Assembly (NCBI GenBank): GCA_036504095.1
Contig: DASXVS010000024.1
Location: forward strand, 145,257-209,256
Length of the DNA stretch: 64,000 bases
Origin: Armatimonadota bacterium
GTDB lineage: Bacteria > Armatimonadota > DTGP01 > JAKQQT01
Direction of reading: 5' to 3'
The notes below the pieces were generated by a model. The model had not been told where the DNA came from. It was given only the letters and a program-made list of their open reading frames with translations, and searched no databases. Below are positions 18,463 through 54,784 of the stretch, in pieces. The position numbers were made by a program, and so were the translations under genes. Within the stretch, counting starts at the first letter, position 1. The number at the start of each line of letters is the position of its first letter.

Positions 18463-18566
18463 TAGTTCCGAGTTCCTAGTTCCGAGTTTCGAGACCCAAA
18501 ACCCGGAAATCGAAACCCGGCACTCGAAACCCGGAACTCGAAACTCGGAACTCGGAACCCGGAACT
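18463..18566. repeat. ~100 bp imperfect palindrome built from 7-mer units (AGTTCCG/AGTTTCG/CCCGGAA/TCGAAAC); candidate intergenic terminator or REP-like element
   Basis: Left arm agttccgagttcctagttccgagtttcgag. Right arm ctcgaaactcggaactcggaacccggaact. Lies between the serine-hydrolase stop and the dapF start. Confidence 0.6.
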
Positions 18567-23492: not shown

Positions 23493-23819
23493 CTACACGT
23501 TGTCTGCAATCGACACATGCGTGACTGCCCCATCGGCGTCAGGCTTCTTGGGCCGGATGACGATCTCAACATCCTGGTCGAGCGCATTCAAGCACTGGAA
23601 CAGCCGTTCAAGCGTAAAGCCTTTCAGCCTCCCACGCGTGATGTCCGAGACGTTCGGCTGTGTAAGGCCAGTTCGACGGGCCGCCTGCGCTTGGGTCAAA
23701 CCCAAGGAGGCGATGACCTCGTGAATACGATAGGCAACGCGCGCCTTGGCCAGGCGCTCCTCTGGTTCCGGCAGACCGAGATCGGCGAAAACGTTACCGC
23801 TTCCTGTTGTGAACTCCAT
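23493..23819 (-). CDS. higA: HigA-like XRE-family HTH antitoxin
   Basis: HTH LTQAQAARRTGLTQPNVSDI. Immediately downstream of the toxin gene with a 1-nt overlap. Confidence 0.7.
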   Translation of the reverse strand: MEFTTGSGNVFADLGLPEPEERLAKARVAYRIHEVIASLGLTQAQAARRTGLTQPNVSDITRGRLKGFTLERLFQCLNALDQDVEIVIRPKKPDADGAVTHVSIADNV

Positions 23820-24208
23820 CAGACCCTACCCCCAAAGTGCTCAGAGTGGTGCTTCGCGGCGTCGGCCAGTCGTTGTCGGATCAGTGCGAGGTCGTGCTGG
23901 CTTGTCTTGCGCCCAACACGGCTCTTCTTCTGGAACGCGTGCAACACGTAGATCGCATCAGCGAATCTCACCGTGAACACGGTCCGGTATGTGTCCCCAT
24001 CAAAGTCGTCCCGGATCTCGAGGACGCTCGCTCCACCGAACCCGCGCAACGGCTTGACGTGAGGCGCCGTGCCACCCTCCTGGACGATCTGAAGGGCATA
24101 GCCGAAGGTATCCTTCACGTCCTCGGGCATCCGGCGCAGGTCGTCGAGGGGCGAGCCAAGCCAAATCAGCGGTCGGTCTGCATCCATTCCGTGTAGTGCA
24201 TCGCTCAA
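23819..24208 (-). CDS. higB: RelE/ParE-superfamily toxin (HigB/Gp49-like)
   Basis: KPL.GFGG.SVLEIR...YRTVF...IYVLHAFQKKS is the Gp49/HigB signature. Alternative start at internal MDADRP (24187). Confidence 0.7.
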   Translation of the reverse strand: MSDALHGMDADRPLIWLGSPLDDLRRMPEDVKDTFGYALQIVQEGGTAPHVKPLRGFGGASVLEIRDDFDGDTYRTVFTVRFADAIYVLHAFQKKSRVGRKTSQHDLALIRQRLADAAKHHSEHFGGRV

Positions 24209-24298
24209 GGCATTATACCATTTCTAATATAAACCTGTCACTTTGGCAGCAGCGTGTCTCGAACCCAGTCTCTCGGAACTCGAAACCCCGAACCCCCC

Positions 24299-25582
24299 TT
24301 ACCACCTCGGCTGTTCGGCCTCGCTGGGCTTTGGGAGCACGGCTTCCGGCGCTTTCGCGTCCGGCTGCGGGGCTCGGAAGTCCGGGACCGGGACCTTCTG
24401 CTGGTACACTGTCTTGAGCAGCGTGTCCAGTTTGCTTGCGTCCTTCACCGTGGACTCGGGGTCCTCGCCCATCAGGCTGTCGAACGCGAAGAAGCTGATG
24501 CCCTGGACGCCCAGCGTGCGACCCACCTTCACCTTCTCGGCGTCGCTTGCCCCGGTGAGCAGCCAGTCGCCGATGCCGGCCCAAAGGTGCGTCTTGTGCC
24601 GGTTCTCCATCGCGGCCTTCACCCAACCGGCCCACTGGCCGGTATCCGTGTGGTACGTCATCGGGATAGCGATATCGAGGATGCCCTCTCGCATCCAGCC
24701 GAACCAGTCCTGGAACGTGCTGTTGTACGGCTCCGAATCCTCCCATTTAGTAAACGCGCCCCACGGGATGAGCGCGGCGGAAACCGCCACGTTGGGCTTG
24801 ATGGCCTTCACGTCCTTGTAGATGCGGCGCACGAGGCCCGTCACGTTGTCGCGCCGCCACTGCGCCCATTTCGCCGGGTACATCGCCGGCCAGGCGTCGC
24901 GTGCCGGCATCAGGTCCATCGCCTCGCGCTCTTCGGGAGTCAGCGCGGGCAGGATGGTCGATTTGAACGCCTTGATGTCGCTGTCATTGAAACCCATGTC
25001 GCGGTTAGGGTAGCGGACGTAGTCAAAGTGGATACCGTCCACGTTGTAGCGCCGCGCCACGTCCAGGAAGACATCGTGGATGTGCTTGCGGGCATCCGGG
25101 TTGCCGGGATCGAGGAACGCGCCTTCGAGGTTGGGGCTGGCGACGAGCGGCACGCTGCCCAGGCGGTCGGCCATCAGCCACTCGGGGTGCGCGTTGACGA
25201 CGTGCTTCGGATCCTTCGGTTTGGAGGTACCGCCCCACACGTAGCACGTGTTCAACCACGCGTGGACCTGGAGGCCGGATTTGTGGCCCAGGTCGATGGC
25301 GGTCTGCAGGGGGTCGAAATCGGCGGGCTGCTTGTCCAGCGCTTCTGCGCGCGGTTCGAGGCCGTTCAGGTAGTAGGCGTCGCCGCGGCCGCGCACTTGT
25401 ACGATAATCGCATTGAAGTTGTACTTCACCGCGGTATCGACCACGCGCTGGATATTCTGCGGGGTGGTCATGTCGTAGCGCACGACCCAGATTGCGCGCG
25501 CCTCCGGCTTGGTCGAGACGGCGTCTTCCGCCATGGCGAACCCTCCCATCAGGAGCAGGAGCGAGAACAACAGAACCTTCAT
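24299..25582 (-). CDS. secreted glycoside-hydrolase-like family 10 (GHL10/DUF187, YngK-like) protein
   Basis: Signal peptide. IWVVRYDMTTP...FNAIIVQVRGRGDAYY is typical of GHL10. Confidence 0.6.
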   Translation of the reverse strand: MKVLLFSLLLLMGGFAMAEDAVSTKPEARAIWVVRYDMTTPQNIQRVVDTAVKYNFNAIIVQVRGRGDAYYLNGLEPRAEALDKQPADFDPLQTAIDLGHKSGLQVHAWLNTCYVWGGTSKPKDPKHVVNAHPEWLMADRLGSVPLVASPNLEGAFLDPGNPDARKHIHDVFLDVARRYNVDGIHFDYVRYPNRDMGFNDSDIKAFKSTILPALTPEEREAMDLMPARDAWPAMYPAKWAQWRRDNVTGLVRRIYKDVKAIKPNVAVSAALIPWGAFTKWEDSEPYNSTFQDWFGWMREGILDIAIPMTYHTDTGQWAGWVKAAMENRHKTHLWAGIGDWLLTGASDAEKVKVGRTLGVQGISFFAFDSLMGEDPESTVKDASKLDTLLKTVYQQKVPVPDFRAPQPDAKAPEAVLPKPSEAEQPRW

Positions 25583-25726
25583 GCGGGCCTCCTGAGGAGA
25601 TGATAGGTGGTATTTTCACCACGGAGGAAACGGAGTACACGGAGGTGCACGGAGGAATTCGATGTCTGAATTGATCCTCTATGAACCTCCGTGCCCTCAG
25701 TGTCCTCCGTGGTTCATTTCGGAGCC

Positions 25727-25843
25727 TACAGGGTTCGGCCCAGCGCTTCCGCCAGCGGTTTCAGTTCGCCCATCAGGCGGTTGAAGTCGCTGAACGTGAG
25801 GCTCTGCATGCCGTCTTTCAGCGCGGTCTTCGGCCTGTCTCAG
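25727..25843 (-). pseudogene. 3'-terminal remnant (~38 codons, no start) of a second DAHP synthase gene
   Basis: The minus strand reads DRPKTALKDGMQSLTFSDFNRLMGELKPLAEALGRTL*. The C-terminus of the intact DAHP synthase at 27311.. reads NPKTALKDGMQSLTFSDFRRLMGELKPLVEALGRTM*. The two share ~80% nucleotide identity over ~110 bp, and a stop codon lies immediately upstream of the remnant. Confidence 0.8.
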
Positions 25844-26727
25844 TCTGCTGCGGGAGACACAGAGCCATCCTGATTGCTCGAAAGCAACCATTCGCCCGAC
25901 GCAGGATCATTCTCAATGAGCCCCTTCTTCTTCAGGGCCTGTTGCGCATGTCGCAACCGGTGTTGCCAAATCACGCGGCGATCTCCGCTGATGATCCGGG
26001 AAACTGAGTCGTCGCACAGATCTGGATGGATAGCAGGGACCATCTCGTAGAGGTCCTGCGTTGACAGACGGCGATCCGACAACAAGTAGAGTACCGTGTC
26101 AGCGAAAATGCTCTGCAGGGATCTGCCCTTTAGGCGGATACGGACGAGGTCGTCTTGAGCGTTCTGCCGCAATTCCGACGACGCGGCTCGAAGTTTCGCC
26201 CTGATTGACCTCTGTTCTTCGGAAACGGCAACGCGGATTTCGGTCACTTGGCTCTGAAGACTCAGCAAACGATCTGGGCTGACCAATCCGCCAAGCCGAG
26301 CGTAGCGCCGTATGTCGTGGTTTACGCGCTTCACGACTGACTCTTCAGTCACCCGCACGCCATACTCGAGGTTGCCTCGGAACCCGCCCTCTGTGAAGTT
26401 CGCAGAGCCGATCAATGCCAAAGAGTCTCCGGAAGTGAACACCTTGGCGTGAATACGTGGCAGGTAGATTAGTCGCGTCTTCGGCAGATGCTCGCACAGA
26501 TAGATTAACGCCGCGACATCGGTGCTTCCCTGGACCAAGTTGGATGCCGAGATGTCCGTGACAACAGTCACAGATACAGCATTCTGCGCACCCTTTTCAC
26601 GGACTCCATCTACCAACAGGCGCATTGGGCCTTGCGTGATGTATGGGGAGCAGATTACGCAGCGCGTCTGGACGCTGTCGATGAACGCGCCGAATGCCGA
26701 CGCAAACGGCGAGGCCATTAGTTCCAA
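25840..26727 (-). CDS. phospholipase-D-family nuclease with a single HKD motif, a coiled-coil middle region and a C-terminal putative winged-helix domain
   Basis: HKD motif IHAKVFTSGDSLALIGSANFT (HxKx4Dx6GSxN). C-terminal LYEMV...VIWQHRLRHAQQALKKKGLIE. Local GC is lower than the flanks. Confidence 0.7.
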   Translation of the reverse strand: MELMASPFASAFGAFIDSVQTRCVICSPYITQGPMRLLVDGVREKGAQNAVSVTVVTDISASNLVQGSTDVAALIYLCEHLPKTRLIYLPRIHAKVFTSGDSLALIGSANFTEGGFRGNLEYGVRVTEESVVKRVNHDIRRYARLGGLVSPDRLLSLQSQVTEIRVAVSEEQRSIRAKLRAASSELRQNAQDDLVRIRLKGRSLQSIFADTVLYLLSDRRLSTQDLYEMVPAIHPDLCDDSVSRIISGDRRVIWQHRLRHAQQALKKKGLIENDPASGEWLLSSNQDGSVSPAAD

Positions 26728-26892
26728 TGGTGTTTAACCTCTCGGTCCGGATTTAGCGGTTAGTTGTGTGTGTCCACCGCTCGGTCAGCGGTTTGGCAGG
26801 CATCTCCCGAGAATCGGCGTGGCCGATCCTGACGCTCAATGTGCTGCGCCAACGAGACTCCCCCCACGGCGGAACAAGCGCAAGATCCGTGC

Positions 26893-27138
26893 TCATTCAC
26901 CAAAGACGACTTCCACCGGTTCCTCTTCGAGGATGGACACGGCGACCTCATCGTCCAATTCGCCCTCCAAGTCGTCGTTCAGATCGACTACGACCGTTCC
27001 ATCCTCGGTCTCAAATTCCGTCCATACGTCCCCCATCGAGTCGTAATGGTCGCAAATCAGAATCCCATCTTCCCCGAGTACTAACGTCGCTCGGTCTACT
27101 TCCACGCAGGCACCGGGCTTGAGGATGATCCTTGCCAT
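26893..27138 (-). CDS. small (81 aa) highly acidic protein (D/E-rich C-terminal half)
   Basis: AGGAGGAG RBS 5 nt before the ATG. Sequence MARIILKPGACVEVDRATLVLGEDGILICDHYDSMGDVWTEFETEDGTVVVDLNDDLEGELDDEVAVSILEEEPVEVVFGE. Same strand and immediately upstream of the PLD nuclease. Confidence 0.6.
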   Translation of the reverse strand: MARIILKPGACVEVDRATLVLGEDGILICDHYDSMGDVWTEFETEDGTVVVDLNDDLEGELDDEVAVSILEEEPVEVVFGE

Positions 27139-27310
27139 GCTTCTTCTCCTCCTAGACTGTGCCCAGAGGTGAAGCCGCCGCGCTCGATCCGCTGTTTTCA
27201 GCGCGATTGTAACGCCCGCTGAGCGGCCGTATTATGACATAGTGCCGAGCGCCATGGCAAGGTGATTGTTCGTCTGCACGTCCCCGCGGCCTCCGCGTTG
27301 AAACCGCAGC

Positions 27311-28333
27311 CTACATGGTTCGTCCAAGCGCTTCCACCAGGGGTTTCAGTTCGCCCATCAACCTCCTGAAATCCGAGAAGGTGAGGCTCTGCATGCCGTC
27401 CTTGAGGGCGGTTTTCGGGTTGGGGTGGGTTTCGATCATCACGCAGTCGGCGCCGGCGGCCAGGGCGGCCTTGGTGCTGCCGCCAACCAGTTGCCAGCGG
27501 CCCGTTCCGTGGCTGGCGTCGCCGCAGATCGGCAGGTGGCTGCGCATGGCGACCTCGCCGATGGCGTTCACGTCCAGTACGTTGCGGTACGCCGTCTCAA
27601 ACGTGCGAATGCCGCGTTCGCAGAGGATGATGTCGTAGTTGCCGCGGCTGGCGATGTATTCCGCCGCCTGCAGCCACTCCTCGATGGTGCTGGCCATCCC
27701 ACGCTTCAGCATCGCCGGGATGCGCGTCTGGCCGATCTCCTTCAGAAGGCTGAAGTTGGACATGTTGCGCGTGCCGATCTGGAAGATGTCCGTGTACTCT
27801 CCCACCAGTTCCACGTCGCGCGTGTCCATCACCTCTGTAATGATGGGCAGTCCGGTCTCCTGCTTGGCTTCGCGGAGCAGTTTCAGGCCCTCGATGCCCA
27901 TGCCGTGGAAGGAGTACGGCGAGGTGCTGGGCTTGTACGCGCCGCCGCGCAGGATGCGCGCTCCCGCGGCCTTGACCACTCGCGCCGCCTCAAGGATCAT
28001 CTCGGGGCTCTCGACCGTACACGGCCCCGCCATGACGACGACCTCCGGTCCCCCGATCTTCACGCCGCACACGTCAATGACCGTTTTCTCCGGGTGGAAA
28101 TCGCGGTTGACGAGTTTGTACGGCTTCGCGACGATGACCACGTCCTCGACCTGCGGCAGGCCGATCAACTGGTCCTTCAGGACGTTCTTGTCCTTGTCCG
28201 TGAGGCCGACGGCGCCCATGATGGTCTTCTCCGCCCCCTGCGAAAGGTGGATGGAGAATCCCTGGCTTTCGAGAAAGGCTCTGACCTCCTGTATCTCCCC
28301 TTCTCCTGCACCTGTTTTCAGAATGACAATCAT
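27311..28333 (-). CDS. aroF: 3-deoxy-7-phosphoheptulonate (DAHP) synthase, type I-beta, with an N-terminal regulatory domain
   Basis: KPYKLVNRDFHPEKTVIDV...VMAGPCTVES...GAYKPSTSPYSFHGMG...ICGDASHGTGR are DAHP-synthase signatures. Confidence 0.85.
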   Translation of the reverse strand: MIVILKTGAGEGEIQEVRAFLESQGFSIHLSQGAEKTIMGAVGLTDKDKNVLKDQLIGLPQVEDVVIVAKPYKLVNRDFHPEKTVIDVCGVKIGGPEVVVMAGPCTVESPEMILEAARVVKAAGARILRGGAYKPSTSPYSFHGMGIEGLKLLREAKQETGLPIITEVMDTRDVELVGEYTDIFQIGTRNMSNFSLLKEIGQTRIPAMLKRGMASTIEEWLQAAEYIASRGNYDIILCERGIRTFETAYRNVLDVNAIGEVAMRSHLPICGDASHGTGRWQLVGGSTKAALAAGADCVMIETHPNPKTALKDGMQSLTFSDFRRLMGELKPLVEALGRTM

Positions 28334-45389: not shown

Positions 45390-45766
45390 GTTAGCTGGAA
45401 ACGCCACGGCACGCCGTGGCGATTCCAGCCGCGGTTTCAAGCGCGCGGGGCGGTTCGTCCTCCGTGTGACATTGAGCTTCCACGGTCACGGCTGGACTCC
45501 GGTCTTCGTATCCCCTTCGCCGAAAACGGCTACCATGCCCGCGCGATCGGTATGGCTCCGCATCCGTCATCTCGACTCTCCTGAAAAAGCACAGACTCAC
45601 CACCACGCCTACCGAGGCGTCAGCCAAGCCTGGTGTTCTCCGCCCGGATGCCCGATTCCGTTCCCGGCGGATGAATAACACGGCTGTCTCCACCTGTAGT
45701 AATCCATGTCAGGCATACACGCACCGCTCAGCGGGGCAGGAACTACAGGAACCAAAGGAGAATCAG

Positions 45767-49437: not shown

Positions 49438-49636
49438 TCCCGCAGCGTGAGGGTGTCTCCCGGCGGGTCCAATCATCTACCGGGAGACCTTCATCTGCGC
49501 CAACCGCAGAGTGGTCCCGTCGGACATCTCCAGGTTTCGCCTAGCTCGTCCTTAAGATGCCGCGAAAACTGCTACCATACCCGCGGGAGCGGCATGGCTC
49601 CGCATCCCTCATCTCCACGCTAGAGAGGAAGCATCA

Positions 49637-51142
49637 ATGCACACCCGTTTGACGCTTGCCGCCTTCGCCATGGCGGCTTTCCTGCCTTGCACCGCAGGCG
49701 CACAGGCTCCCCGCGGCGGATTCGGCGGCGGCTCCGGAAGTCCGCTTGCCGGGCTAGCAAACCCCCACGCCGGCACGGCCAAACATGAAGGCTCCTGGGA
49801 TCGCTCAGGCGGCAATGCCGATATGCGTTTCATCAAGCCCGGAGAAACGCTGACCATCTTCGACGCGAAAGGCCCCGCGGTGGTCCACCGTTTCTGGGTG
49901 ACCATCGCCCCGCGAACCGATACGGAAATCCTGCGACAGACCATCATCCGCATGTACTGGGACGGCGAAAAGGACCCCAGCGTGGAATGCCCCATCGGCG
50001 ATTTCTTCGGGGTGGGCTTCGGGCAGCAGGTAGACTACCAGTCCATGCCGCTCAACGAAACCAGCGGCGGTTACAACTGCTACTGGCCGATGCCGTTCCA
50101 CCAGTCGGCTAAATGGACCATTGAGAACCGCAGCAAGAAGAATCTGGATGCATTCTACTACAACATCGATTACACTGCCCTCGAGACGATGAACCCGAAC
50201 ATGAGGCATTTCCACGCTTCGTGGCGGCGCGAGAACCCCACTTCTCCCGGCAAGAACTACACGATCCTCGAGGCCGAGGGCGACGGCCATTACGTTGGTA
50301 CCGCGCTCTTCATGCAGAACCGGCGGGGCCATGGTCTCGGCTTCCTCGAGGGGGACGAGATGGTTTACATCGATGGCGAAACCACGCCCAGCATCAACGG
50401 AACCGGCACTGAAGACTACTTCTCCAGCGGCTGGTACTTCGATCGAGGCACCTACTCCGCCAACTACCACGGCGTACAGATCAAAGATGAGACCCTCGGG
50501 CGCGTGAGCACCTATCGATGGCATATTGAGGACGCGATCCCGTTCCACAAGTCCATCAAGTTCACCATCGAGCACGGCACCAACAATGACCACGTGGCGG
50601 ACTACTCCAGCGTTGCCTATTTCTATCAGAGTGAGCCGCACAAGGCCTACCCGCCCCTGCCTGCCAACGCAGCCGACCTGCTGCCGACCGTTCCGCCGCC
50701 CCCGATGAAGATCCAGGGCGCCATTGAAGGCGAGAACCTCGTGGGCTCGGCAAAGGCCACCGTCGGCAACGTCCTCACGCAAGAACTGACGTCGGACGCG
50801 GGCGCCTGGAGCGGCGACAACCAGCTTTGGTGGATTCCCGAACGGGCCAACGGGGTCCTGACCTTTCAGCTTCCGGTCGCCAACGCGGGCACATATGATG
50901 CGACGGCCTACCTCACGAAGGCCCACGATTATGGCATCTTCCGCGTCTCGGTGAACGGCGTCTCCATTCCCGGCGAGATCAACCTCTACCACGATGGCGT
51001 GATGCCCTCCGGTCCGATTCCCATTGGCAGTGTGAAGCTGAAAGCCGGCGACAACGAGATCAAGGTCACCAATGCCGGCAAGGACCCCCTCTCCAGCGGG
51101 TACCTCTTCGGCCTCGACTGCGTCGTGCTCAAGCCGCAGTAA
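49637..51142 (+). CDS. glycoside hydrolase family 172 (DUF2961) protein, secreted
   Basis: WDRSGGNAD and DUF2961-like core. Signal peptide. Confidence 0.7.
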   Translation: MHTRLTLAAFAMAAFLPCTAGAQAPRGGFGGGSGSPLAGLANPHAGTAKHEGSWDRSGGNADMRFIKPGETLTIFDAKGPAVVHRFWVTIAPRTDTEILRQTIIRMYWDGEKDPSVECPIGDFFGVGFGQQVDYQSMPLNETSGGYNCYWPMPFHQSAKWTIENRSKKNLDAFYYNIDYTALETMNPNMRHFHASWRRENPTSPGKNYTILEAEGDGHYVGTALFMQNRRGHGLGFLEGDEMVYIDGETTPSINGTGTEDYFSSGWYFDRGTYSANYHGVQIKDETLGRVSTYRWHIEDAIPFHKSIKFTIEHGTNNDHVADYSSVAYFYQSEPHKAYPPLPANAADLLPTVPPPPMKIQGAIEGENLVGSAKATVGNVLTQELTSDAGAWSGDNQLWWIPERANGVLTFQLPVANAGTYDATAYLTKAHDYGIFRVSVNGVSIPGEINLYHDGVMPSGPIPIGSVKLKAGDNEIKVTNAGKDPLSSGYLFGLDCVVLKPQ

Positions 51143-51149
51143 GGGAGTT

Positions 51150-51192
51150 TCAGGTTCCGAGTTCCGGGTTTCGAGACCCGGAACCCGGAACC
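51150..51192. repeat. 7-mer-based palindrome GGTTCCGAGTTCCGGGTTTCGAGACCCGGAACCCGGAACC; candidate terminator or REP-like element
   Basis: Directly after the GH172 stop. Same family as 18463..18566. Confidence 0.55.
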
Positions 51193-51347
51193 CTCCTCTT
51201 TGGTACCCGGGTACTTCGAGACGGTGCAAATTACCCGTTTTGGATTCGGCTTTCTGCAGGGTAATAAACGCCCAAGGCGCTTGGGGCGGGGCTGCTTCTT
51301 CTCTTAGGCTGCCTGTCTTGATTGTCGCGTCGGAATGGGGGGCCCGG

Positions 51348-52157
51348 ATGAATCGTTTGGCGCTGTGTTCCGCTGTCGTTATTGGAGCATTTGAGCTGAT
51401 GCTGGGCGGCGACGCTGCCGCCGCGACCGTCACTTCGACCGGCGCCGGATCGTCTGTATCGTCGATTGACCGCTCCGCGACGTTCGACCGGCTGGACTGG
51501 ACGCACAACGGAACGCCGCTGAGCGACTACACCGAGGGCCTCCTCTTCATCGGCACTGATGGTGACAGCACCGTCGGATGGGGGCCAAGCGTCATACCCC
51601 CGTTTAATCCGTTCCATCTGCCGATGGACCCGGCTACCCAGGCCTTCTTTTTCCCTGACTTCGGTAACACGACCCAGGCCACTATTCGCACCACCGACCA
51701 GAAGCGGATCTACGCCATTGAGTTCCTGTACGGCAATGGTTGGACCACCGGCGACATCTACGGAGTCCCGTGGGGCGATAACCTCGGCTGGCTCGTGTGG
51801 GAGACGCTGCGGGGGACCGCCGTTGTGTCTTCGGGGCAGATCGGGCCTAACCCTTCTCTACCGGTCGGGACGATCGTCGGCTGGTATGATCCCGAAGGTT
51901 TCGATGAGCTGCACGTGAAGTGCGTGGTAGAGAACCCCACCCCTCCGAATTTCCAGGAACTCGCCCTCGATGATGTCCATGTTCAGTTGACAGCCGTGGG
52001 GGCGTATTCCGCGGCAGACGCCGTGCGTGCGCTGGAGGTCGCGCTCGGCTTCAACGTGGCGACGCCCGTTGATATGGCGCGTCTCAACGTGACGGGCGGC
52101 CCGTCCATCGAAATGGACGACGCAGTGTGGATTCTCCGAAAGACGCACGGCCTGTGA
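51348..52157 (+). CDS. secreted hypothetical protein with a C-terminal dockerin-like segment
   Basis: Start MNRLALC. C-terminal AADAVRALEVALGFNVATPVDMARLNVTG...MDDAVWILRKTHG. Confidence 0.5.
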   Translation: MNRLALCSAVVIGAFELMLGGDAAAATVTSTGAGSSVSSIDRSATFDRLDWTHNGTPLSDYTEGLLFIGTDGDSTVGWGPSVIPPFNPFHLPMDPATQAFFFPDFGNTTQATIRTTDQKRIYAIEFLYGNGWTTGDIYGVPWGDNLGWLVWETLRGTAVVSSGQIGPNPSLPVGTIVGWYDPEGFDELHVKCVVENPTPPNFQELALDDVHVQLTAVGAYSAADAVRALEVALGFNVATPVDMARLNVTGGPSIEMDDAVWILRKTHGL

Positions 52158-52220
52158 GAGTATTGAGTTTCGAGTTCCAAGTTCCGGGTCTCGAAACCCG
52201 GAACTCAAAACTCAATACTC
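52158..52220. repeat. long palindrome GAGTATTGAGTTTCGAGTTCC...GGAACTCAAAACTCAATACTC between convergent genes
   Basis: Read from the sequence. 7-mer units. Related to the elements at 51150 and 36690. Confidence 0.55.
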
Positions 52221-52244: not shown

Positions 52245-53555
52245 CTACGCCTGGCTGGCCGCGAGCGCCTGGTCCAGGTCGGCGATAATGTCGTCCACGT
52301 TTTCCAGACCGACGGACAGGCGAACGTAATCGGCGGAAACGCCGGAGTTCTTCTGTTCCTCGGGCGTCAACTGCTGGTGAGTTGTGGACGCCGGGTGGAT
52401 GATCAGGCTTTTCGCATCGCCGATGTTCGCCAGGTGTGAGAACAGCTTCACGTTGTCGATGAGTTTGGCGCCGGCCTCACTGCCACCCTTAATGCCGAAT
52501 CCGATGATCCCGCCGAAGCCGTCTTTCAGGAACTGCGTCGCGCGGGCGTGGTCCCTGTGGCTGGCCAGCCCGGGGTAGTTTACCCAGGCTACGCTCGGGT
52601 GCTTCTCCAGCCACTCCGCAACCTTCAACGCGTTGGCGCAGTGCTGGCGTATGCGGAGCGGCAGCGTCTCGAGACCCTGCAGGAAATAGAAGGCGTTCTG
52701 CGGCGCCAGCGTGGGACCGATGTCTCGAAGCAATTGAACGCGCGTCTTCAGGATGTACGCGATGCCGGGTACCACCGCCTTGTCGTGATTGCCGAAGGCC
52801 GCCCAGTAGGAGACTCCGTGGTAAGACGGGTCGGGTTCCGTGATCTCGGGGAATTTGCCGTTGTCCCACGGGAAGGCGCCCAGGTCCACGATCGCGCCGC
52901 CGATGCTGGTGCCGTGCCCGCCGATGTATTTGGTGAGGCTGTACACGATGATGTCCGCGCCAAGTTCCTTCAGGCGCAGGATCGGCGGCGGCGCCACGGT
53001 GTTGTCCACAACCAGCGGAATGCCGTGTTTGTGCGCGATCTCGGAGATCGCCGGGAAATCATCCACATTGTTGGCCGGATTGCCCAGCGATTCCGTGTAG
53101 AGCAGGCGCGTGTTCTCATCGATCGCCTTCTCGAAATTGGCCGGATCCGACGAATCGACGAACCGGACATCGATGCCCAGGCGCGCCAGCGTGTAGTGGA
53201 AAAGGTTGTAAGTTCCGCCGTAGATATTGCTCCCGGAAACGATGTTCTGCCCGGCGCTGGTGATGTTCAGGACCGCCAGTGTTATCGCTGCCTGCCCCGA
53301 GGAAAGCGCCAGCGCGCCTGTACCGCCATCCAACGCGGCCAGGCGTTTCTCCAACACGTCGGTCGTAGGGTTCATAATGCGGCTGTAGATATTGCCGAAA
53401 GCGCGCAACCCGAAGAGGTCGGCCGCATGCTGAGACGAATCGAATACGTACGATGCCGTCTGGTAGATCGGCACGGCGCGCGCGTTGGTGGCCGGGTCAA
53501 CAACCTGGCCGGCGTGAAGGGCGAGGGTTTCCACCCCCTGGTTCTGAGTGCTCAT
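52245..53555 (-). CDS. metY: O-acetylhomoserine (thiol)-lyase / O-acetylhomoserine sulfhydrylase
   Basis: PLP-dependent Cys/Met-metabolism family. LALHAGQ...[23 protein letters not shown]. Confidence 0.85.
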
Positions 53556-53629: not shown

Positions 53630-54784
53630 CTACCGGCTTGAAACTGCCGCCTTAAGCGCGGCGTCCAGATCGTCAATGAGATCGTCCGAATCCTCGATGC
53701 CGACGGACAGCCGCAGTGTTCCGTCGGTGATGCCCCGGCGCTCGCGCTCCTCGCGGGCGACCGAGGCGTGGGTCATTTCCGAGGGGTAACAGCAGAGGGA
53801 TTCGACGCCGCCCAGGCTCTCCGCAAAGGCGAAGACCTTCAGGCTGCTCGCAAACGCCTCCACCGCCGGGCGGCCGCCCTTGATGGCGAACGATACCATT
53901 CCGCCGAAGCCGTCCATCTGGCGTTTCGCAAGCTCGTGCTGAGGGTGAGCCGGCAGCCCGGGGTAGTGGACGGCATCCACCTGCGGGTGGGTTTGCAGGA
54001 ATTCAGCGATCCGCTGGGCGTTCTGGCCATGCTGCCGCATACGCAGCTGCAGCGTCTTGACGCCGCGCAGCGTGAGCCAGGCGTCGAACGGCCCCGGGAC
54101 CGCGCCCGCGGCGTTCTGGTAAAACTGGATATCACGGTGCAGGACCGCGTCGTTCACCACCACCGCGCCGCCGATGACATCGGAGTGGCCGCCGATGTAC
54201 TTTGTGGTGCTGTGCACGACGATGTCCGCTCCCAGGGCGAGGGGTCGCTGCAGGGCTGGTGTAGCGAACGTGTTGTCCACGGCCAGAGGCACGCTGTGCG
54301 CGCGGGCGATAGCGGCAACCGCGGCGATATCGACGAGTTGCAGCAGCGGGTTCGTGGGCGATTCGATCCATATCAGTTTCGTGGCGGGCGTCAGCGGCGC
54401 CTCGAAATTGGCGGGGATCGCCCCGTCCACGTAGGAAAAGCTGACGCCCTGCGGCGTCAGAACTTTTTCGAAGAGACGGTAAGTCCCCCCGTAGATGTCC
54501 GCGGCGGAGACTACGTGGTCTCCCGGACGTAGAATCGAGAGAACAGCGGTCTCGGCCGCAAGCCCTGACGCGAACGCGAGGCCGTTCCCCCCACCCTCCA
54601 GGGAGGCGATGCATTCCTCCAGGGCGGCCCGCGTCGGGTTTCCCGAGCGCGAATACTCGTAGCCCTTGTGCTTGTGAACCCCCGCCTGCGTGTACGTGGA
54701 CGTCTGATAGATGGGAACAATAGTGGCTCCGGTGGATTCGTCCGCCGCCTGCCCCGCGTGTATAGCCTTCGTTGCGAATTTCAT
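53630..54784 (-). CDS. metB: cystathionine gamma-synthase / beta-lyase family PLP enzyme
   Basis: [36 protein letters not shown]. The long upstream ORF extension is spurious. Confidence 0.8.

Follow-up and report, generated by a model that had tools for sequence, protein, structure and literature searches.

A horizontally acquired two-gene cassette at the 3' end of aroF in an Armatimonadota genome brought its own allele of the gene's end

Introduction

How do small genes with a putative role in defence come to lie directly against an essential housekeeping gene without an integrase and without damage to that gene, and why should the end of the gene then be present twice? This question is raised by aroF, the gene for 3-deoxy-D-arabino-heptulosonate 7-phosphate (DAHP) synthase, in a stretch of 64,000 nucleotides from an Armatimonadota bacterium (assembly GCA_036504095.1, contig DASXVS010000024.1, positions 145,257 to 209,256; hereafter the window), where an islet of two genes separates the intact aroF from a second, imperfect copy of its last codons. 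A first reading of this DNA, made from its letters alone (the original prediction), took the arrangement for the classic scar of site-specific integration into a gene 3' end, left by a decayed or minimal island. We demonstrate here that the islet (25834-27304) is a horizontally acquired two-gene cassette lodged between aroF and its native downstream hairpin, that aroF is now completed by an allele of its last ~105 nt that the incoming DNA brought with it, and that the native aroF end was pushed ~1.5 kb downstream, where it persists as a silent remnant. All available data on the locus, from the window as well as from its relatives, are metagenome contigs.

A repeated aroF end encloses a compositionally foreign islet

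The relevant genes all lie on the minus strand, in the order aroF, an open reading frame without relatives (ORFan), a PLD-family nuclease gene, the aroF remnant, the hairpin, GHL10 and a Gp49/HTH pair (Table 1). The ORF call and the domain hits agree that aroF is intact and ends where the original prediction had placed its end, its final ~35 codons being those of the attached allele. The aroF 3'-end repeat is the top self-match of the window (blastn, E = 3e-26), with 94 of 114 positions identical (82.5%, close to the ~80% estimated at first) and a spacing of 1585 nt between the two copies. Homology begins with CCGAAG (Pro-Lys-Thr) at 25833 and ends 6 nt past the stop codon, and the translation of the remnant, PKTALKDGMQSLTFSDFNRLMGELKPLAEALGRTL, is in frame and has its stop at the homologous position. 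The two window copies agree throughout one 20-nt block, GACGGCATGCAGAGCCTCAC, which is almost unchanged across the whole set of copies. The remnant itself thus stands as predicted, whereas the upper coordinate of the interval first assigned to it (25727-25843) does not: homology starts ~10 nt inside, and the "DR" codons beyond that point are not derived from aroF.

We rejected the possibility that the remnant is the tip of a longer degraded paralogue extending beyond 25843, which had been named as an outcome that would overturn the proposed displacement: the sequence upstream of it is the end of the PLD gene, whose product is full length against 24 homologues. A tblastn search with the whole of aroF found no further similarity in the window, and an apparent aroF-like extension into 25834-25902 was not significant. 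The ends of the islet in the window carry no inverted terminal repeats, and no known RNA or tRNA target emerged from an Rfam E-value scan of 23-29 kb, a gathering-threshold scan of the window or ARAGORN, all of which were empty. A diversity-generating retroelement, with the copies as its variable and template repeats, was likewise rejected, as there is no reverse transcriptase in the locus and the mismatches are not adenine-specific: at the 20 mismatches one copy has just 4 adenines and the other 3. Separately, we observed that the PLD ORF and the remnant share a reading frame with one TGA between them (25834-25842), such that read-through would add 37 residues; this is probably a coincidence, as the corresponding frames in the related locus L167 (see below) do not match.

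The islet differs from its surroundings in composition, as the original prediction had held on the basis of its visibly lower GC content. At 57.3% GC against 63.0% for the window it lies in the lowest 0.6% of segments of the same size, all segments that low overlapping the islet itself, which makes it the GC-poorest stretch of the 64 kb, and its tetranucleotide distance is in the top 0.3%. The GC fraction at third codon positions (GC3) is 0.66 in both cargo genes and 0.87 in aroF and GHL10. ORF and domain scans confirm that the islet holds only the acidic 81-aa ORF and the PLD gene, and no recombinase domain was found in either product with Pfam, in line with the predicted lack of an integrase. 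The 172-nt spacer between aroF and the ORFan contains a promoter-like site (TTGCCA, 18 nt, CATAAT, with an extended -10 TG; 10/12 matches, on consensus alone), and a gap of 6 nt separates the end of the PLD gene from the start of the remnant.

Table 1. Features of the aroF-GHL10 region in the window
Feature	Coordinates	Strand	Evidence and remarks
aroF, DAHP synthase, 340 aa, target gene	27311..28333	-	Pfam DAHP_synth_1 7.9e-73 and DAHP_snth_FXD (ferredoxin-like domain); same length as relatives
Gene-attached repeat copy (last 35 codons, stop, 6 nt)	27305..27418	-	repeat D1
Post-stop 21-mer TTCAACGCGGAGGCCGCGGGG	27282..27302	-	20/21 shared with L168
Promoter-like site of the cassette	27231..27260	-	consensus match only
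Acidic 81-aa ORFan	26893..27138	-	ORF call; no family match
PLD-family (HKD) nuclease, 292 aa	25840..26718	-	PLDc_2 9.5e-12
Whole inserted islet, 1471 nt between repeat copies	25834..27304	-	composition outlier; absent from L169
Remnant, displaced aroF 3' end	25720..25833	-	35 intact codons 25729-25833, stop 25726-25728, 6 nt; no start codon
Native long hairpin, ancestral downstream boundary	25618..25713	.	inverted repeat I1
GHL10-family glycosyl-hydrolase-like gene, conserved right flank	24299..25582	-	Pfam GHL10 6.9e-44; same neighbour in L167, L168, L169, L176
Gp49(HigB-like)/HTH toxin-antitoxin pair	23493-24208	-	downstream of GHL10

An empty site and alternative cargoes in related genomes

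Contextual information from related genomes places this arrangement in perspective. Related loci are referred to by the labels L163, L164, L167, L168, L169, L175, L176 and L178. Our aroF scans returned 160 loci, among which remnants are confined to a clade with at least 90% aroF protein identity, the only other double matches being full tandem paralogues. In L169, the closest relative found (GHL10 89.7% identical to that of the window at the nucleotide level, aroF ~93% upstream of the repeat), aroF is followed directly by 125 nt containing the hairpin and then by GHL10, with a single aroF 3' end; this is the empty-site allele that the original prediction had anticipated among relatives. L168 shows aroF, a hairpin-like sequence, a gene for a 309-aa TPR protein, an aroF remnant of at least 146 nt without a stop, the native hairpin and GHL10, its repeat copies being 90% identical over 146 nt. 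The TPR cargo ORF stops at a TGA inside the aroF remnant (L168 5127-5423), and the stop-less remnant creates a spurious 91-aa ORF through the hairpin. In L167 the cargo consists of two uncharacterised ORFs (48 and 190 aa), after which comes a remnant of 108 nt; the repeat copies are 91% identical over 100 nt. L176 comes from a second sample and matches L167 at 100% over 2.87 kb. In L163 (aroF 96% identical at the protein level) and L164 (85%) other genes directly follow aroF and the contigs end there; the gene in L164 is a DUF4145/PD-T7-4 defence gene. There are accordingly three complete occupied alleles, each of ~0.8-1.5 kb and each with its own aroF 3'-end repeat, and two others cut by the contig end. 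More distant relatives have ordinary genes after aroF, namely thrC or a cation-efflux gene. GHL10 nucleotide identity is 89.7% between the window and L169, 91.0% between L168 and L176, and ~83% between these subclades, and therefore the nearest relative of the window is the one with the empty site, while L168 and L176 are sister lineages with different cargo and different boundaries. The aroF-GHL10 interval is thus a recurrent, multi-allelic insertion hot spot.

Two further candidates from the relatives were rejected. The sequence TAGGCTCCG, which lies upstream of the remnant in L167 and might have been the vestige of a third copy, was not significant (p = 0.2), and L178, a 79% aroF relative that appeared to have a truncated 3' end, proved to carry a 1-nt frameshift and no cassette. 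The frameshift in L178 affects the same 3' region (1100-1180, a missing T in GATTTCC) and may be a sequencing error or mark a pseudogene; the post-stop hairpin of L178 begins with CACCGCGGAGG, resembling the foreign-type sequence after the attached copy in the window.

With metagenomic contigs as the sole source, the mis-assembly of two strains, or a chance repeat, has to be considered as the origin of the structure. Such an artefact is next to negligible in our estimation: the repeat has an E-value far from chance (3e-26); the occupied structure was recovered twice, in a JGI record and in the Logan assembly of a sequencing run (L001, L002), which possibly go back to one sample; L167 and L176 are identical across their analogous structure in two samples; and the non-homologous junctions share no k-mers or other common sequence able to mislead an assembler. 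The window matches the JGI metagenome contig 3300035523 Ga0376481_000103 (231 kb), and the aroF product has also been deposited as a protein of an Armatimonadota metagenome-assembled genome.

The same comparison bears on the suggestion that the islet is what deletion has left of a once-larger, integrase-bearing island, here reduced to two genes. The islet is indeed compositionally foreign, and islands are known to decay to a state in which att-like repeats remain but the integrase is gone. Against this, the three complete alleles are all within 0.8-1.5 kb, with complete cargo genes that end at the remnant, and it is unlikely that decay would have arrived three times independently at one minimal, tightly bounded form; the window remnant, moreover, is without decay. 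No recombinase domain was found with Pfam in the cargo ORFs scanned (the two of the window and those of L163, L164, L167 and L168), no recombinase gene lies in the 13 kb around the islet of the window, and the intact integrase-carrying version that the original prediction would lead one to look for did not appear among the 160 aroF loci or in viral contigs. A mobile form in viruses was also not found, a degenerate 24-mer from the repeat giving 0 matches in IMG/VR. All occupied alleles seen being small and integrase-free, with the last cargo stop by the remnant in the three complete ones, we consider decay from a larger island very improbable and do not retain that part of the prediction.

The gene-attached end is the probable imported copy

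Which of the two ends is native can be addressed from their divergence. The window copies differ at 19 coding positions, 12 of which are third positions (synonymous divergence, dS, 0.68; nonsynonymous divergence, dN, 0.10; dN/dS ~0.15), and none of 20,000 simulations of 19 random changes gave three or fewer amino-acid changes without a stop; dN/dS between the copies is 0.17 in L167 and 0.09 in L168. Since a drifting remnant would not show such a synonymous bias, the copies must stem from two functional aroF alleles, and the original prediction was right to deny, from the many synonymous differences, a recent tandem duplication of the same allele.

The remnant behaves as a resident of this lineage. 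It has 13/108 mismatches to the single copy of L169, a GC3 of 0.857, and a dS to relatives of 0.46-0.66, similar to that of the rest of the gene (0.44-0.65). The attached end has 19-25/108 mismatches to every relative, a GC3 of 0.771 and a run of codons, AGG-AGG-TTG, in which AGG stands out, as it is used for 0/16 arginines in aroF codons 1-305 and for 6% in the neighbouring genes. From its own partner in the window the remnant differs at 19 positions, against 13 from L169, and the attached copies of L167 and L168 are likewise nearer to more distant lineages. A donor of the attached copy was not found, its mismatches to more distant lineages also amounting to 25-30/108. These comparisons support a host-like, probably native remnant and a foreign-like, apparently imported attached end, in agreement with the original prediction that the element supplied a replacement 3' end and displaced the original one.

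The divergence of the copies also speaks to an in-situ origin of the repeat, by which staggered breaks would have been filled to give a long target duplication, with copies identical at birth, and one copy would later have undergone allelic replacement. Such an origin matches a class published for restriction genes, solitary type IV ones among them, under the name of insertion with long target duplication, and each copy in L167 and L168 has the other as its nearest or near-nearest relative. It would nonetheless leave the purifying-selection signature between copies in three genomes (dN/dS 0.09-0.17) without a cause, as a silent remnant should lack it, and it needs an extra recombination event per lineage. 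Target duplication would make the two repeats of the window each other's nearest relatives, yet their mutual similarity does not exceed their similarity to other genomes. We therefore hold an in-situ duplication to be distinctly improbable.

How the cassette may have been inserted

We lean, with a confidence only a little better than even, towards an insertion anchored by homology at the aroF 3' end and independent of any cassette-encoded integrase, as far as its enzymology can be inferred. By the most likely route, a small circle consisting of an aroF 3' fragment and the cargo would recombine once with the chromosomal aroF 3' end (Campbell topology), and this single crossover would duplicate the homologous segment and displace the old end; recombination between the two repeats would in turn release the circle, or delete the cassette, and leave aroF intact. 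A one-sided variant, namely homology-facilitated illegitimate recombination (HFIR) from linear DNA, would have the same outcome. The insertion is fairly young, because the window remnant shows no decay.

The edges of the repeats are informative in this regard. At the 5' side the start of homology is Pro-Lys-Thr for the window, a point no more than 3 nt away for L167 and one 41 nt further upstream for L168, and at the 3' side homology extends past the stop by 6 nt in the window, by ~0 nt in L167 and by ~90 nt in L168. An extension of the window and L167 remnants to the L168 boundary was considered and rejected as not significant (p = 0.29 and 0.18). By eye, nothing obvious is shared among the 20-45 nt on the cargo side of the three right junctions. 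In each complete allele the final stop codon of the cargo falls 0-10 nt from the remnant (within it in L168), which leaves no space for recombinase arm sites and is not the form in which repeated decay of a larger island would be expected to end. After the stop of the attached end in the window, the 21-mer matches the corresponding place in L168 at 20/21 positions and then diverges (cargo against cargo, E = 4e-4), and therefore the imported pieces reach slightly into the foreign-type downstream region; the 21-mer is the start of a foreign-type hairpin region that arrived with the imported end. The longest perfect matches between the copies of the three alleles are 20, 23 and 29 nt, with 20 nt in the window. 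As 20-29 nt is near the lower limit for homologous recombination, homology-anchored insertions would be rare.

These same junctions are what a non-autonomous site-specific element, comparable to a cis-mobilizable element (CIME), has to explain. For such an element a tyrosine or serine recombinase would act in trans on a core within the aroF 3' end, and the repeats would be attL and attR. A replacement end, a displaced end and an empty site are what CIME-like elements leave; the window and L167, with unrelated cargo, have their remnants starting within 3 nt of each other; and the block GACGGCATGCAGAGCCTCAC could serve as the core. The conservation of that block is, however, explained by coding constraint, and no recombinase gene is present in the islet, in the scanned cargo ORFs or in the 13 kb around the islet. 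The L168 boundary lies 41 nt upstream, the extent of 3' homology varies from 0 to +90 nt, and a fixed boundary with a conserved element-side half-site was not seen across the insertions, of which three junctions are available. Finally, the end duplications of GHL10 and MutS2, described next, would each require a recombinase of their own. With variable boundaries, no shared cargo-side sequence and no space for arm sites, classic site-specific integration as first predicted does not fit the locus well, and we judge its CIME-like form unlikely.

Signatures similar to that at aroF were observed at two other gene ends. In L169 a 56-nt, 79% identical copy of the GHL10 3' end surrounds, together with the gene, a PD-Lambda-5_A-like protein, a 329-aa ORF and a Dam-type methyltransferase. 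In L175 (3600-5000), an unrelated metagenome contig, two copies of the last ~80 nt of mutS2 enclose a C-protein and a type II restriction endonuclease (PADLOC REase_II, 2.6e-55); these copies are 92-94% identical, the second having a 21-nt deletion, and the cassette lies immediately upstream of a homologue of the PLD gene of the window. A generic homology-anchored route fits the aroF, GHL10 and MutS2 cases more simply than several dedicated integrases.

Several observations weigh against homology-anchored insertion and account for our limited confidence in it. We saw neither a circular form nor a donor genome nor an excision junction. The window copies, 82.5% identical with a longest match of 20 nt, are a poor RecA substrate. 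Despite different cargo, the remnants of the window and L167 start no more than 3 nt apart, hinting at a site preference, and the attached copy is foreign-looking over most of its length in all three alleles, which in every case puts the crossover close to the 5' edge; both the shared boundary and the 5'-edge crossovers would also be expected from a trans-acting site-specific enzyme. The divergence of the aroF 3' end between genomes is raised without being a clear outlier (rank 5-156 of 306 windows), and we rejected the description of this end as hyper-divergent. The model leaves unaccounted how the founding cassette gained its aroF fragment, and the sample comprises about six genus-level contigs.

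If insertion is nevertheless homology-anchored, a broader life cycle may be entertained as a rather doubtful proposal. The cassettes could be recombinase-free mobile defence units in which a housekeeping 3' end of ~100-150 nt acts as an "address tag": they would loop out via the repeats, move between related species and re-enter by a single homologous crossover, with the essential gene remaining intact throughout.

The long hairpin downstream of aroF

The hairpin-rich region that the original prediction had noted after the remnant contains a genuine structure: the hairpin of the window (96 nt) has a folding energy of -65.1 kcal/mol with z = -6.7. The structure is kept in L167 (4750-4850), L168 (5290-5390) and L169 (385-470), with 12/29 pairs changed on both sides. 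The element (~95 nt) is built of short tandem motifs, CACGGAGG in the window and GAGGAAA in L169, and has neither an Rfam match nor a U-tract. From its sequence it may be a stabiliser or a terminator. We rejected the alternative of a genome-wide repetitive extragenic palindromic (REP) element, as CACGGAGG is enriched at this locus only.

The cargo: a predicted nuclease and an acidic ORFan

In the AlphaFold model of the PLD protein (pLDDT 89) a nuclease domain (residues 1-147) is followed by a helix of ~50 residues and a C-terminal winged helix, the latter with a weak match to Mrr_N. The protein has a single HKD motif (HAK...D...GSANFT), in which H90, K92 and the GSANFT block do not vary in the family alignment, and the RE_NgoFVII PLD domain was matched by 25/25 aligned family members. 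Foldseek returned SauUSI, Nuc, NucT, Zucchini and BfiI as the best matches of the model, with probability 1.0 to Nuc and SauUSI (structures 7clg, 1byr, 6ehi and 2c1l). The family comprises ~200 clusters, mostly of 285-290 aa, from Acidobacteria, Chloroflexi and others, with at most 52% identity to the window protein. Searches for it on mobile replicons yielded little: tblastn gave no match in plasmid and phage collections, and the PLD profile one weak partial match in viral contigs (IMG/VR). Identity with DISARM DrmC was rejected, as the score is 48.9 bits against an NCBIfam cutoff of 133 and there are no drmA, drmB or methylase neighbours.

The protein has the HKD motif, the PLDc_2 and RE_NgoFVII profiles and the fold in common with Nuc, the N-terminal domain of BfiI/NgoFVII and the nuclease domain of SauUSI. 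It differs from them in a distinct architecture of PLD domain, helix and winged helix, known here from sequence and model, which defines an uncharacterised family. Our best guess is a solitary, possibly modification-dependent, restriction-type DNA nuclease with a predicted use in defence, the solitary role being suggested because no methyltransferase is adjacent.

The ORFan encodes 81 aa with 24 acidic (D+E) and 3 basic (K+R) residues, and AGGAGG lies 9 nt upstream of its ATG. It has no family match, and a search among 1.84 billion representatives finds only itself. A single-sequence AlphaFold2 model is all-beta (pLDDT 70) and has no fold match. Nothing resembling the ORFan occurs at the loci of PLD homologues, where no conserved partner was found. 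Speculatively, and going by sequence features, it may share the cassette's own promoter with the nuclease gene and may modulate the predicted nuclease. As a separate observation, in the Acidobacteria locus L170 (5884-6135; also in L172-L174) a PLD homologue is directly followed by an acidic ORF of 83 aa (21 D+E, 7 K+R). This ORF has no sequence similarity to the ORFan of the window and, by analogy, may be a partner of that homologue.

A second variable slot and other observations

A second variable slot lies directly after GHL10 (window 23493-24208, L169 2177-5102, L167 6284-8959). In the window it is occupied by the Gp49/HTH pair, whose genes have a lowered GC3 (0.75 and 0.69); there is no duplicated GHL10 end, and no GHL10 remnant was found in this slot. 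In L169 the slot holds the PD-Lambda-5_A-like protein, the 329-aa ORF and the Dam methylase, followed by the GHL10-end copy, and in L167 and L176 a GmrSD_N/NsnA-like gene and a 422-aa ORF. The native GHL10 terminator is found downstream of the cargo in the window and in L169.

Elsewhere in the window, intergenic REP-like palindromes composed of GAGTTCC/GGGTTTC heptamers occur at 18464-18508, 51145-51191 and 52165-52206, with a similar motif at ~24250-24297, and one pair of them brackets the ORF at 51072-52157. A 59-nt motif is present twice with 86% identity (45521-45579 and 49563-49621), ~15-130 nt upstream of plus-strand ORF starts; it has a possible stem, CCATGCC...GGTATGG, is without a match in Rfam and could represent a cis-regulatory leader common to both sites. 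A 79-nt direct repeat of 77% identity (52886-52964 and 54157-54235) lies inside adjacent large minus-strand ORFs (436 and 608 aa) and probably reflects paralogous domains.

Significance and comparison with known systems

The locus offers a natural example, from an uncultured phylum, of small defence genes settling beside an essential gene without an integrase and without damage, and it provides an empty site together with three independent occupied alleles whose repeats are allelic and non-identical. The aroF-GHL10 and GHL10-BNR intervals are, in addition, hot spots that can be mined for Armatimonadota defence genes, such as the PLD/winged-helix family and several ORFans.

A close precedent in content is the catalogue of restriction and restriction-modification genes "inserted with long target duplication", for which a cycle through the repeats has been suggested (Nobusato et al. 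2000, Gene 259:99; Furuta, Abe & Kobayashi 2010, PMC2853133). These inserts are smaller than 20 kb, have long (>30 bp) variable direct repeats that are single-copy in the empty-site genome, and are flanked by copies mostly 93-100% identical, which have been read as target duplications of unknown mechanism (PMC2853133). The present case resembles them in its restriction-type gene, the lack of a mobility gene, the low GC content of its 1.47-kb cargo and the 114-nt repeat that is single in L169, as well as in the overlap of the repeat with the 3' end of the upstream gene, which is frequent among the published cases. It is unlike them in that its copies are 82-91% identical and represent two functional alleles, and therefore one copy was imported. 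The cargo also differs, in being a lone PLD nuclease with an ORFan and in having several alternatives at one site; as it includes no methyltransferase, it resembles the solitary type IV cases of the Kobayashi group. Whether repeats around restriction genes are target duplications or donor-supplied homology has been an open question since 2000, and here they are donor-supplied. Were the "address tag" life cycle correct, it would be the missing cycle behind the long-target-duplication insertions.

In topology the locus recalls the displacement of toxin tips. For rhs C-termini a model of homologous recombination with a circular intermediate has been put forward (Jackson et al. 2009, PMC2935791), and for effector-immunity modules of type VI secretion systems (T6SS) a one-sided HFIR model (Kirchberger et al. 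2017, PMC5361080). As in rhs, contact-dependent inhibition (CDI) and T6SS loci, an intact gene is followed by a displaced old end with a conserved piece of variable length (105-150 nt here), and the new end is of other origin and other GC content and comes with linked genes and no integrase. In those systems, however, the payload is the new tip itself, which encodes another toxin domain, and many orphan tips pile up in arrays. At aroF, a housekeeping gene receives an equivalent allele of its end, separate defence genes form the payload, and a single remnant was seen per locus in place of an array.

Integrase-mediated islands at gene 3' ends and the integrase-less CIMEs, for instance at fda in Streptococcus thermophilus, supply a replacement 3' end, are bounded by attL and attR direct repeats and have empty-site alleles. 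The aroF locus is like them in its insertion polymorphism, in an empty site with one repeat copy (L169) and in a repeat that restores the 340-aa aroF. It is unlike them in that the loci seen have no recombinase and neither a constant boundary nor a conserved element-side half-site, in its small size, and in the comparable duplication at the neighbouring GHL10 3' end in L169.

The "minimal mobile elements" of Neisseria share with this locus two conserved flanking genes, alternative whole-gene cassettes, often of restriction or defence function, and the lack of mobility genes; unlike here, they exchange by double crossover in the flanks and leave no duplicated gene end. These elements are mentioned in PMC3787668 and PMC1797815. 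Taken together, the kind of event at aroF is known, whether as 3'-end displacement or as long-repeat insertion of restriction genes, whereas the instance is new, and it is informative because its repeats are demonstrably allelic.

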